Below the pieces are notes generated by a model. It was not told where the DNA came from. It saw only the letters and a list, made by a program, of their open reading frames with translations, and made no database searches. A stretch of 64,000 nt of DNA from Dictyostelium discoideum (Eukaryota), in NCBI GenBank assembly GCA_000004695.1, contig CM000152.2, positions 3,136,001 to 3,200,000 of the forward strand. Reading direction: 5' to 3'. The number at the start of each line of letters is the position of its first letter. The stretch's first letter is position 1. Below are positions 59,244 through 63,504 of the stretch, piece by piece. A program made the translations under genes and the position numbers.

Positions 59244-59330
59244 ATGAAATTAAACTTTATTGGAGGCCAAAATCGTCAAGGACCAACTACCTCAAGTAAC
59301 AAACCAAGTGGAAGATCAGGTAAGATATCT
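59244..59330 (+). other. Conserved short exon-like ORF (M..GQNRQGPTTSSNKPSGRS) ending at a GTAAGA donor. A second copy lies at 61151..61232. A diverged version lies at 63016..63132 (MFPNSNGPNKMKALVAPSNSSTTSKTNNNNLPPNGRSS|GTGAGT).
   Basis: Each has an ATG, a short hydrophilic peptide ending NGRS(S/G) and a canonical 5' splice site. The peptide-GT junction is retained even in the diverged third version. No downstream coding exon was identified. Confidence 0.25.
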
Positions 59331-60111
59331 CAACTCTCTCTATCTCTCTCTCTCTCTCTAAAACAATTAATAAATAATAAACCATTACTGACATTTATAA
59401 AAATTAAAAAAAAAAAAAACAAATAAAAAAAAAAATTAAAAAAGTTTTCTTTGCATAAATAGTATAAAACCCTTACGCGCGATTATTTTTAATTATTAAA
59501 TTAATAATAAAAAGTTAAATGAACATTTTAGAATATATTAAACCCTAATTTGTTATTCATTCAATATTTTTCAATAATCATTAATTATTTAAATAATTAA
59601 GTTTTTATTATTAGTTTAATAATTTCCAAATATTTTTTATATTTCAAAAAATAAAAAAAATAAAAAAAAAAAAATAAAAAAAAATAAATTAATTAAATCG
59701 AAAAACATATAATGTTTTTTTTTTTTTTTTTGCTGGAAAAATAAAAAAAATTAAAATTTGTTTTGGGTGGGATCTATTTTTTTTTTTTAAATAACAATTA
59801 TTTGATACTAGCTTTTATTATTCAAAAAAAAAAAAAAAATGTAAGGAGGTAATACATCTTGAGATTGTACCATCTATTATTTAAAAAAAAGAAATTTTAT
59901 ATTATTAATTACTTGATTTCTAAATTAATAATAAATGAATATTTGGTGTCATAGGTATTGAAGGAAAATATTAAAAAAAAAATAATAATAAAAAAAAAGG
60001 TATTTAAAGGTTTAAATAATTATTAATTCTAAATAATTAAACATTCAAATATTAATTTTTATTAAAGCTATAAAAACAAGGTATTAAAAAAAAAAAAGAA
60101 ATCTTATTAAA

Positions 60112-60585
60112 ATGAGATCAATCCTTATTTTATTAAGTTTATTATTAACAATTGCATTTGCTTCAGCAAGTTTCCCATACCAATGTGGTCCATATAGTTG
60201 TCAATTTGGTCAAGTTTGTAGAATTGATAATGGTGTTTGTAATTGTATTCCAATTAATGATTGCCATGAAGTTTCATTATCAACAAAAGTAGTTGGTACT
60301 TGGGTAGATGGTTCACGTGGTAATAAAAGATTCACTCAATATGATATTACAATCACAAATAATTTAAATACAAATATTAAACAAATTTACATTGCCACTG
60401 ATTACACCTTAAGATTAAGAGATCATTCAAATACTTCAATTTGGAATGTTAACCTTTTACCAAATGGTATCCTCACTCTTCCATCATACCAACCATCAAT
60501 CAATGCTCATGCTTCTTTTACATTTGGTTTCATTCTTGAAGGTACTCAACCTGCAAATTTAAATGTTTTATCAGTATCTTTCTAA
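60112..60585 (+). CDS. Secreted Cys-rich CBM49-like protein, tandem copy 2 (157 aa).
   Basis: Same family. The variants NTS and GFILEG are shared with the inverted paralog at 22.7 kb. Confidence 0.7.
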   Translation: MRSILILLSLLLTIAFASASFPYQCGPYSCQFGQVCRIDNGVCNCIPINDCHEVSLSTKVVGTWVDGSRGNKRFTQYDITITNNLNTNIKQIYIATDYTLRLRDHSNTSIWNVNLLPNGILTLPSYQPSINAHASFTFGFILEGTQPANLNVLSVSF

Positions 60586-62022
60586 ACACCTATCATTTTA
60601 AGTTAATCAAAAAAACACCATAATAAATAATTTATTATTTATTTTATTTTATTTTTTTTAATTTTATTTAGTTTTATTTTATTTTATTTTAAAACGTTGT
60701 AATAATTTAAAAAACATTATTTAAATCGTTATTTTTTTTCTATTTTTTTTTTTTGAAATGTATTAATATTTAAAATTAATAAAAAAAATCTCAATTTATC
60801 TTGTGTCATATGAATGATATCATTGGCACAAGGGAAAAGTAAAGTAACTTTTAAAAATATCAGGTGATTTTTATTTATTTTTTTATTTGGATTTTTGACA
60901 ACCTGGGATCAAGATATTTTTAATTCAAATAATTGAAATGATAATTTGGGTTGGTAAAAGCAATCACAAATATCTAAAAATTATCTAAAAAAATAAAAAA
61001 AATAAAATTTTTTTTTTTTTTTTAATATTTAAACCCCATTATTTTTTTTTAGTTTTTATTACATCATCATTCATTTCAATAAAATAATTATTTTTAACAT
61101 TACCTCTTTTTTTAATATTCAATAATCCTTTAAATCTGCCAATTAACAAAATGAGAACAAGCTGGACAGGTGGCCAAAATCGTCAAGGACCAACTACCTC
61201 AAGTAACAAACCAAGCGGAAGATCAAGTAAGATATTATATTACCCCTCCAACAAATTATTAATTAAACAATCATTACTAACATTTTTAAAAATAAAAAAT
61301 TAAAATAAAATAAAATAAAAAAGTTTTCTTTGCATAAATAGTATAAAACCCTTAAGCGCAATTATTTTTAATTACTAAATTAATAATAAAAAGTTAAATG
61401 AACATTTTAGAATATATTAAACTCTAATTTGTTATTCATTCAATATTTTTTAATAATCATTAATTAATTTTTAATGAGTATTTTAATAATTTAAAATGTT
61501 TTTTATATTTCAAAAATATAATAAAAAAATAAAAATAATAAAATAATAAAATCTAAATACATTTGTAATGTTTTTTTTATTATTTCTGGAAAAAATAAAA
61601 AATGAATAAAATAAATAAAATTTGTTTTGGGTGGGTTCTATTTTTTTTAAAACACCAATTATTTTGATATTAGCTTTAACATCTATTATATTAATTTTTT
61701 AAAATATTCTGGAAAAAAATGTAAAGAGGTAATAGATCTTAAGATAGTACCATCTATTATTTAATAAATGGTAAAATGGAAACTTTTTATTATTAATTAC
61801 TTGATTTCTAAATTAATAATAAATGAATATTTGGTGTCACGGGTGTTAAAGAAAATATTAAAAAAAAAAAACAAAAAAAAAAAAAAAATAATTTAAAAAA
61901 AAAAAAAAGGTATTTAAAGTTTTTAAATTATTAATTCTAAATAATTAAATATCAATAAAAATATTTATTAAAGCTATAAAAACAGGTATTAAAAAAAAAA
62001 TTTTATTTAAATAATTATTAAA

Positions 62023-62496
62023 ATGAGATCAATTCTTATTTTATTAAGTTTATTATTATCAATTGCATTTGCATCAGCAAGTTTCCCATACCAATGTGGT
62101 CCACATAGTTGTCAATTTGGTCAAGTTTGTAGAATTGATAATGGTGTTTGTAATTGTATTCCAATTAATGATTGCCATGAGGTTTCATTATCAACAAAAG
62201 TAGTTGGTACTTGGGTAGATGGTTCGCGTGGTAATAAAAGATTCACTCAATATGATATTACAATCACAAATAATTTAAATACAAATATTAAACAAATTTA
62301 CATTGCCACTGATTACACTTTAAGATTAAGAGATCATTCAAATAACTCAATTTGGAATGTTAACCTTTTACCAAATGGTATCCTCACTCTTCCATCATAC
62401 CAACCATCAATCAATGCTCATGCTTCCTTTACTTTTGGACTCATTATTGAAGGTACTCAACCTGCAAATTTAAATGTTTTATCAGTTTCTTTCTAA
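62023..62496 (+). CDS. Secreted Cys-rich CBM49-like protein, tandem copy 3 (157 aa).
   Basis: Same family. It has unique LLSIAF and CGPHSC changes and otherwise resembles copy 1. Confidence 0.7.
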   Translation: MRSILILLSLLLSIAFASASFPYQCGPHSCQFGQVCRIDNGVCNCIPINDCHEVSLSTKVVGTWVDGSRGNKRFTQYDITITNNLNTNIKQIYIATDYTLRLRDHSNNSIWNVNLLPNGILTLPSYQPSINAHASFTFGLIIEGTQPANLNVLSVSF

Positions 62497-62891
62497 ACCA
62501 TCAAAACAAAAAAAAAAAAAATACCATAATAAATAATTTATTATTTATTTCATTTCATTTTATTTTATTTTTAATTTATTTTTTATTTCATTTCATTTTA
62601 TTTTATTTTATTTTAATATATTTTATTTTATTTTATTTTATTATATATTATTTTTTTTTGAATTTGTTTTTAGAAATGTTTATTTAAATTTATAAATTTT
62701 TTTTTAAGGGAAAAAAAAAATAAAAAGATATTTTAAATCTATGAAAACAAAAAAAAATCAGGCATATCAGTTTTTGATTGCGCAATATTTTCAAAAAAAA
62801 AAAAAATTAATAGAAATTATTTGGAAAAAAGTGGTTTTATTTTTCTTTTTTTTCCACAAATCCAAAAATATCTGGGTCGATCATATTTATA

Positions 62892-62923
<32 letters not shown>

Positions 62924-63504
62924 AATAATTTTATTTTTTTTTTTGGGTTTTAAATTTTTTTTTTTTATTTTATTTTTTTTCTTTTTTATACTTTTCAAAA
63001 ATTAGTTAATATAAAATGTTCCCAAATAGTAACGGCCCAAACAAGATGAAAGCACTTGTTGCCCCATCGAATTCATCTACCACATCCAAAACAAATAACA
63101 ACAATTTACCCCCAAATGGAAGATCAAGTGAGTTTTTTTTTTTTTTTTTTCCTCCAAACACACAAACACTAATTGTATAAAATTAATAAAAACTAATATT
63201 AATCATAAAATTTTTTTTATTTTTTTATTTTATTTTCTTCAGTTTTTGGTCCATAAAACAGTATAGTGAAACCGGATTACCTATTTACATTTAATAAATA
63301 AAGATGTAAATCAAAATGTAAAATTAAATTTATATATTTTTTTTATTTTTATTTTTATTTTTTATTTTTTTTTTATTTTTATTTTTTAAAATAGAAAAAG
63401 AAAAATTCTGTTTTTGGATGAAATACAACTTAAAGGTATATCATGACAATGATGGGAATTTTGTTGAAACTTAATTCTTCAACTGTTGACGGTATTGAAT
63501 TTTT

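Follow-up and report, generated by a model that had tools for sequence, protein, structure and literature searches.

Three exon-like elements in the Dictyostelium discoideum stalk-gene cluster are probably complete two-exon micropeptide genes

Does a short open reading frame (ORF) that runs into a strong splice donor, and that recurs behind each gene of a tandem array, mark a fragment of something larger or a complete gene of its own? The question is raised by the staB / staA / DDB_G0280277 stalk-gene cluster on AX4 chromosome 3 of Dictyostelium discoideum, which is the place of the extremely AT-rich 64,000-nucleotide stretch analyzed here (contig CM000152.2 of assembly GCA_000004695.1, positions 3,136,001 to 3,200,000 of the forward strand; hereafter the window). 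Three ATG-started ORFs, at positions 59244, 61151 and 63016 of the window, end in GGAAGATCAR followed by GTRAG, and we call these elements c1, c2 and c3. An original prediction had pointed to the same ORFs and to their strong GTAAGA or GTGAGT donors, which are indeed present at these places, and had found no exon downstream of them. The reading that we favor, with a probability of roughly 0.78, is that the elements are lineage-specific, fast-evolving and copy-number-variable two-exon genes for cationic micropeptides of 29–50 amino acids (aa), which are mis-modelled in AX4.

A scan of both strands of the window for the junction motif GGAAGATCARGTRAG, with up to two mismatches allowed, gives exactly three occurrences, compared to 0.11 occurrences expected from shuffled sequences, and a count of three was reached in 0 of 100 shuffles. 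Joining each donor to the first canonical AG after it gives introns of 125, 97 and 115 nucleotides (nt) in c1, c2 and c3, respectively. Exon 1 ends one base past the Ser codon in all three elements, and the intron is therefore in phase 1. The downstream exon supplies four codons and then TAA, with GRS joined to VFFA in c1, to IFFA in c2 and to IFGP in c3, and the predicted spliced peptides are 29 aa (c1 and c2) and 41 aa (c3) long; QGPTTSSNKPSGR is a predicted peptide stretch of c1 and c2. An AATAAA stands 37–48 nt past the stop codon in the three window copies, within blocks that are kept between species. The features of the three elements are the following.

59115..59122, + strand: c1 TATA-like box TATTTAAA, then CCCATT, then a T-run; some 120 nt 5′ of the ATG, putative promoter
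59244..59319, + strand: c1 exon 1, coding, 76 nt (MKLNFIGGQNRQGPTTSSNKPSGRS plus one base); GC content 0.38, start context AAAATG
59320..59444, + strand: c1 intron, 125 nt, GTAAGA...AG, phase 1; branch-point-like TACTGAC at 59386-59392
59445..59458, + strand: c1 exon 2, coding; Val completed, Phe-Phe-Ala, TAA (59456-59458)
59506..59511, + strand: c1 AATAAA polyadenylation-type signal, 48 nt past the stop, in the conserved block TTAATAATAAAAAGTTAAATGAAC
61026..61033, + strand: c2 TATA-like box TATTTAAA, then a T-run
61151..61226, + strand: c2 exon 1, coding, 76 nt (MRTSWTGGQNRQGPTTSSNKPSGRS plus one base)
61227..61323, + strand: c2 intron, 97 nt, GTAAGA...AG, phase 1; TACTAAC at 61275-61281
61324..61337, + strand: c2 exon 2, coding; Ile (split codon), Phe-Phe-Ala, TAA
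61385..61390, + strand: c2 AATAAA signal
63016..63127, + strand: c3 exon 1, coding, 112 nt (MFPNSNGPNKMKALVAPSNSSTTSKTNNNNLPPNGRS plus one base); diverged paralogue, type B below
63128..63242, + strand: c3 intron, 115 nt, GTGAGT...CAG, phase 1
63243..63256, + strand: c3 exon 2, coding; Ile (split codon), Phe-Gly-Pro, TAA
63293..63298, + strand: c3 AATAAA signal, in the block TTTACATTTAATAAATAAAGATGTAAATCA, which is mostly kept in all four type B-carrying species

The base composition of c1 follows this partition, with a GC content of 0.38 in exon 1 compared to 0.19 in the intron and 0.14 upstream, and the first 100 nt past its stop are 0.83–0.89 identical between species. Each element follows one of three tandem 157-aa ORFs (58120, 60112 and 62023) that are exact matches to AX4 StaB, StaA and DDB_G0280277, the secreted, stalk-specific CBM49 proteins of the cluster. 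The spacing of about 650 bp that had been given for all three elements holds for c1 (651 nt from the CBM49 stop codon), whereas c2 and c3 lie 566 and 520 nt from theirs; similarly, the GRS at the end of the ORFs is part of the junction, but the final Gly or Ser codon that had been counted with it is formed with the donor GT, only its first base being exonic. Because c1 and c2 lie inside a recent tandem duplication, in which the whole spacer aligns and is about 80–90% identical, their likeness is in itself no evidence of selection. What c1 and c2 have in common with c3 is limited to the last part of the ORF, the donor, the acceptor and the opening bases of exon 2.

Four syntenic loci in related genomes were reached with CBM49 homologues as handles: those of D. 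citrinum (L001), D. cf. discoideum ACTFIZ (L003), D. cf. discoideum ACTFIY (L008) and D. dimigraforme (L009). There, blastn with the AX4 elements recovered 13 further copies, bringing the total to 16 over five genomes including AX4. AX4 has three copies, ACTFIZ eight and ACTFIY one, while D. citrinum and D. dimigraforme each have one copy of either of two paralogue types, which we termed A (c1 and c2, with a GGQNRQGP core) and B (c3, with an NGPNKMK core). All the copies detected by blastn are intact, and the two-exon design is the same in 16/16. In each of the 13 further copies the ATG-started ORF ends in [G/N][R/K][S/T/P] plus one base and is followed by a GT donor (GTAAGATAT, GTGAGTTTT, GTAAGT or GTATGA), an intron of 80–121 nt, an AG acceptor, four codons and a stop. 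A (T)ACTAAC- or ACTGAC-like branch site is present in the type A and ACTFIZ introns, except in that of the D. dimigraforme copy dim_A. Where no downstream exon had been seen, the nearest canonical acceptor thus leads to four codons and a stop in every copy; the remark in the original prediction that the frame hits a stop within 1–4 codons was correct, but what it describes is a conserved gene end and no sign of a missing exon.

The tails encoded by exon 2 are IFFA, VFFA, VFFS, IFFS, VFLN, IFHA and IYLA in the type A and ACTFIZ copies, and IFGP (three copies, including those of D. citrinum and ACTFIZ) or YFGP (one copy, D. dimigraforme) in type B. The position of the stop is fixed in all copies, one of which has TGA in place of TAA. 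The codon split by the intron varies on either side of it (A/TT, G/TT, T/AT, the slash marking the intron) and always encodes Ile, Val or Tyr. Conservation within the peptides is confined to the G..[RK] core, the G[RK]S junction and the tail, and does not extend to the N-terminus; the family has a conserved C-terminus of the form [R/K][S/T]-[I/V/Y][F/Y]x[A/S/P/N]. The suggestion that the GRS-GT junction is under selection is borne out by the constraint on it across the 16 copies. In ACTFIZ, five of the eight micro-genes (Z_1 to Z_5; L003 1735-8000) sit in units from which the sta coding region is gone or where it is fragmentary, and these micro-genes are intact. The type A and ACTFIZ copies, other than that of D. 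dimigraforme, also carry a short CG-containing palindrome about 5–25 nt past the stop in AT-rich surroundings; it varies by copy (CGCGCG, GCGC, TCGCGA, CTCGAG, ACGCGT, TCGA), with window sites at 59470-59481 and 61349-61360 and others in the L003 and L001 copies.

Is the exon sequence coding? Of the six frames, frame 0 alone is stop-free in 16/16 copies, and in shuffled exons the chance of an open frame is 0.03–0.36 per copy. At least ten events have changed the exon length, and both the ATG-to-anchor and the anchor-to-donor distances differ only by multiples of 3 (34/37/40 in type A; 61/76/79/85 and 18/21/24/30 in type B; 37/52 and 51/57 in the ACTFIZ group). Intron lengths obey no such rule (125, 97, 83, 96, 87, 88 and 85; 115, 80, 121 and 83; 105, 110 and 93). 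The ratio of non-synonymous to synonymous substitution rates (dN/dS) is mostly 0.27–0.7 for orthologue pairs and about 1.0 in two pairs, with small counts. The net charge is +4 in 14/16 copies despite peptide lengths of 29–50 aa and low pairwise identity, acidic residues are absent from the peptides of types A and B, and Cys is absent from all copies. The GC content of exon 1 is 0.30–0.46, compared to 0.11–0.22 in the intron and upstream flank, and all 16 start codons are in the AAAATG context. Upstream of the ATG each copy has a TATA-like, T-rich region, which is clearest in type A. A TATTTAAA or TTTAAA box, with CC(C)CA(T/C)T and then a T-run behind it, precedes the ATG by about 120 nt in type A and by about 40–75 nt in the ACTFIZ copies.

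How do these genes appear in existing annotation? In AX4, c1 is DDB_G0280387 (60 aa) and c2 is DDB_G0280389 (50 aa), both hypothetical proteins whose ORFs read through into the intron, and c3 is DDB_G0280279, a hypothetical protein of 54 aa that ends in GRSS-FWSIKQYSETGLPIYI. The loci, start codons and exon 1 peptides of these models are identical to those of the genes proposed here. The DDB_G0280279 model needs a 114-nt intron, which can be placed in five equivalent ways, none of them with GT and AG together. With the canonical c3 intron, which at 115 nt has one base more, the C-terminus becomes IFGP instead of SFWSIKQYSETGLPIYI. In D. citrinum the annotated exon 2 frame of DDB_G0280279 (FWSIKQYSETGLPIYI) is disrupted by a 4-nt indel. 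In the tail of the copy cit_A, a TTT to TTC difference is synonymous in the proposed frame and changes Cys to Arg in the annotated one. We rejected the annotated exon 2 frame because it requires a non-GT..AG intron and is not conserved. An exact look-up of the spliced peptides in the protein collection found none, and only read-through or mis-spliced models are present there. Automatic models in new NCBI assemblies fuse the micro-genes with unrelated downstream sequence (L008 10001-10953 and L003 6682-7446); the second of these, a 101-aa model, spans the copies Z_4 and Z_5, and the first, P0030 (135 aa), was rejected as a longer protein since it is a chimeric automatic ACTFIY model that joins the micro-gene, via a GC 'donor', to an unrelated downstream fragment absent from AX4.

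The three AX4 models are present in the RNA sequencing (RNA-seq) lists of differentially expressed genes in Additional file 7 of Rosengarten et al. 2015 (PMC4403905), which hold genes called by baySeq at a false discovery rate (FDR) of ≤0.01 in starved suspension cultures. DDB_G0280387 and DDB_G0280389 are on the suspension_DOWN sheet, by column position under Hr03_gradual and Hr04_rapid, and DDB_G0280387 and DDB_G0280279 are on the suspension_UP sheet (PMC4403905). As the models are in lists thresholded at this FDR, the loci appear to be transcribed and regulated early in starvation, not obviously with the adjacent late stalk genes. A lack of transcription, which would have undone the original prediction, is thus not what the records show. 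No mention of the three gene identifiers was found in the paper texts.

Combining these findings, we propose the following gene structure. Each element would be a complete, independently transcribed gene. The TATA-like box and T-run, clearest in the type A and ACTFIZ copies, would serve as the promoter region, and the 5′ untranslated region would be about 100 nt long in type A and shorter in the ACTFIZ copies. After an AAAATG start, a variable basic exon 1 rich in Gly, Pro, Ser, Thr and Asn would end in [G/N]-[R/K]-[S/T/P] plus one base, to be followed by a canonical phase 1 intron of about 80–125 nt with the layout GT..(T)ACTAAC..AG, and by an exon 2 of four codons ([I/V/Y]-[F/Y]-x-[A/S/P/N]), a stop and, some 40–50 nt further on, AATAAA. 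The predicted mRNA is about 250–350 nt long. Its presumed product, provided that it is translated, would be a Cys-free, probably disordered, cationic (+4) peptide that has a short hydrophobic tail at its C-terminus and lacks a signal peptide. Types A and B would represent two old paralogues, and tandem duplication would expand and contract the family both with the neighboring CBM49 (sta) genes and independently of them. The sequence would evolve fast while the frame, charge, junction and tail are kept. The conserved tail and the charge are most likely the functional determinants, and the [R/K]-[S/T]-[I/V]-F C-terminal motif may act as one by serving as an interaction or processing site. We dropped HbYX, PDZ-ligand, 14-3-3 mode III and protein kinase A-site readings of this motif because the variable tail residues do not fit them.

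Several observations weigh against this reading. Use of the proposed splice sites in vivo is a prediction from the sequence. All five genomes are those of D. discoideum or close relatives. Around CBM49 homologues of D. purpureum (four loci) and P. violaceum (one locus), neither blastn nor a relaxed splice-aware detector found a micro-gene, which is a weak counterpoint, as these loci are not syntenic and the failure to find one there therefore says little. The dN/dS ratio is about 1.0 in some orthologue pairs and 1.4–1.6 among ACTFIZ paralogues, with small counts; given ratios of around 1 or higher in some pairs and in the young ACTFIZ paralogues, the peptide sequence appears to be weakly constrained. 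The three genes are not among the listed rows of a stalk/spore/cup differential expression table, nor among those of a life-cycle proteome table, for which few tryptic peptides would be expected from them. Furthermore, the best conserved segment of the copies is exon 2 with the first 100 nt past the stop (0.83–1.0 identity) and not exon 1 (0.66–0.96), and a function at the RNA or DNA level is therefore possible.

This last point bears on an alternative in which the elements are spliced, polyadenylated non-coding RNAs with an incidental ORF, or in which the conserved 3′ block serves the cluster as a regulatory DNA element. The dN/dS values near or above 1 in several comparisons, the lack of the peptides among the proteome rows listed and the short GC-rich palindromes directly past the stop of type A and ACTFIZ copies are also in keeping with it. 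Against it stand (i) the exon length changes, all in multiples of 3 while intron changes are not, which speak against the 5′ exon of a non-coding RNA that had been one of the initial suggestions, (ii) the single frame that is open in all 16 copies, (iii) the kept stop position, including the change from TAA to TGA, (iv) the junction codon, which varies on both sides of the intron and remains Ile, Val or Tyr, and (v) the recurrent +4 charge. Nor is there a match to a known RNA family: Rfam 15 gave nothing at the gathering score in 58500-64000, and the only two hits there were chance-level microRNA matches (63518-63609, − strand; E 0.26–0.61). The conserved 3′ block is largely the AATAAA region, and the polyadenylation region would explain post-stop conservation in part; this conservation would also be the main remaining argument for an RNA- or DNA-level role. 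On balance we consider this alternative unlikely, though worth keeping in mind.

Two further explanations tie the elements to other genes. The location of c1 and c2 within a unit that was duplicated recently, and whose spacer is alike throughout, is what would be expected of decayed first exons of a larger gene that were passively copied with the tandem sta units, a view that the original prediction had also entertained. All 16 copies are intact, however, with their own AAAATG, intron signals, stop and AATAAA, and they persist in ACTFIZ where the sta gene has decayed. No parent gene emerged from a full HMMER search of 1.84 billion representative proteins with an exon 1 profile, which returned only the elements' own models and low-complexity repeat proteins, the chimeric P0030 being the one longer hit, or from a word-index search of 5.8 billion proteins (with c3 and with a 22-row family alignment), which returned only the three AX4 models. 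None of these hits is the first exon of a known gene, and we therefore hold this origin to be highly improbable. Hardly better placed, and still very improbable, is the idea that the ORFs are upstream ORFs or leader exons belonging to the sta gene that comes next, or that they begin a longer protein with further downstream exons. It draws on the same-strand position of c1 and c2, about 650–800 nt ahead of that sta gene, and on P0030 as one automatic model that extends the ORF. The next gene after c3 and its orthologues is, however, a convergent FNIP-type gene and not a sta gene; in ACTFIY, which has a single sta gene and a single micro-gene, the micro-gene is succeeded by unrelated sequence, with no sta gene downstream; and a fourth staA-like gene in the window (22662-23132) has no micro-gene nearby. 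AATAAA follows the stop of each micro-gene, and a TATA-like box of their own precedes the ATG of the sta genes by about 90 nt. As to a longer protein, the protein searches revealed none whose conserved N-terminus is homologous to the exon 1 peptide, and P0030, the one candidate, is chimeric, its GC 'donor' being replaced by TCAT or TCCAT in the other copies.

If the elements are micropeptide genes, what might their products resemble? A search of Pfam-A with five representative peptides (E ≤ 10) found no family, with a single chance match at E = 0.16. Among known kinds, small ORF (smORF) or micropeptide genes come closest as a generic class. Such genes, of which Drosophila tarsal-less/pri and sarcolamban are examples, have ORFs far shorter than 100 codons. 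Like them, the genes described here would have their own short mRNA (as predicted above), were overlooked or mis-modelled, and retain frame and motif over sequence identity. Unlike them, they form a tandem multi-copy family with rapid turnover, without homology to any described micropeptide, without a transmembrane helix or polycistronic arrangement, and with an intron four codons before the stop as the family hallmark. The MSDIN-type precursors of ribosomally synthesized and post-translationally modified peptides in Amanita are about 35 aa long and form an expanding family with an intron close to the stop codon. As a lead only, they share with our family the very short precursor, the expansion, the variable sequence between conserved elements and the intron near the stop; the micropeptides, however, have no conserved N-terminus and no Pro-flanked core, and the family alignment does not show the MSDIN-like design of a conserved leader and follower around a Pro-bounded hypervariable core. 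We know of no link between these micropeptides and a prolyl oligopeptidase.

Dictyostelium itself uses peptide signals from non-classically exported precursors, namely spore differentiation factor (SDF)-2, which comes from AcbA, and SDF-1, which is processed by TagB. The micropeptides resemble such signals, by description and not by sequence, in being small, cationic and without a signal peptide. Of the initial idea of a short secreted peptide, one part is retained: a short peptide is the most likely product, but secretion is not supported, and none of the copies has a hydrophobic N-terminal signal, the maximal 8-residue Kyte-Doolittle mean being −0.01 to 1.5 compared to 3.4 for the StaA signal peptide. 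SDF-1 was trapped on a cation-exchange resin (PMC1885808). SDF precursors are described as accumulating late, in prespore cells (PMC4334915), whereas the type A genes are listed as down-regulated 3–4 h into starvation. A more specific version of the micropeptide reading would have the products as cationic bioactive peptides or their precursors, exported without a signal peptide, with [R/K]-[S/T] before [I/V]-F as a processing or modification site and with turnover driven by social or microbial conflict. An SDF-1-type developmental signal and an antimicrobial or kin-related peptide would be the candidate roles, which charge, size and turnover would fit; we regard this version as a long shot.

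The surroundings of the micro-genes hold several further features. A C39-like peptidase gene at 56876-57504 has counterparts in the syntenic loci of the related species. DDB_G0280277, the third tandem CBM49 gene, is without a sta name; in supplementary file 5 of PMC6198379 it peaks by far (1235) in one stalk/spore/cup RNA-seq column, like its neighbor ecmL, and it looks like a third stalk-type sta gene. The fourth CBM49 gene (22662-23132, − strand) is 98% identical to StaA and lies 35 kb from the tandem cluster. Just downstream of it is a 59-nt inverted repeat (21962-22020 and 22159-22217, 98% complementary, 138 nt between the arms), which could be an element resembling a miniature inverted-repeat transposable element or a long hairpin. 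Elsewhere in the window, a tRNA gene at 7611-7692 (+ strand; Rfam RF00005, 61.5 bits) spans 82 nt and, given this span, is likely to contain an intron or to have an extended variable arm.

Closer to the micro-genes, a perfect 12-nt palindrome, AATGATATCATT, is found at 58816-58827 and 60813-60824 inside a GC-richer conserved block that begins CTTGTGTCATATGAATGATATCATTGG. It lies about 330–430 nt upstream of c1 and c2, is also present in ACTFIY and, with one change, in D. citrinum, and may be a transcription-factor site. On the 3′ side of c3, the region in which related species have the convergent FNIP-repeat gene is occupied by a perfect-centre inverted repeat (63500-63627, 64+64 nt, 86% complementary), to which the chance-level microRNA matches given above belong, and a similar AT-rich hairpin (aaaatccagcaattt...aaattgctggatttt) is found at about 4020-4160 of L003. 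In the same ACTFIZ locus, a sta-like CBM49 fragment (residues 77-150) stands at the start of the micro-gene array (1735-1956), and the match of the middle sta gene (10001-10509) to StaA is broken into two parts, suggestive of a frameshift or a rearrangement.

What would these genes mean for D. discoideum? Three of its reference models would be corrected, DDB_G0280387 and DDB_G0280389 to two-exon genes for 29-aa peptides, and DDB_G0280279 to a 41-aa product with a canonical intron. One previously unrecognized family would unite the three, its copy number at this locus varying between 1 and 8 in very closely related genomes. The four-codon terminal exon would be a clean example of a structure that defeats human and automatic annotation alike. 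As long as no function emerges, the practical value would be modest. The three genes, all inside a 4-kb interval of an organism with easy genetics, would make a small and tractable set for the study of micropeptide function.

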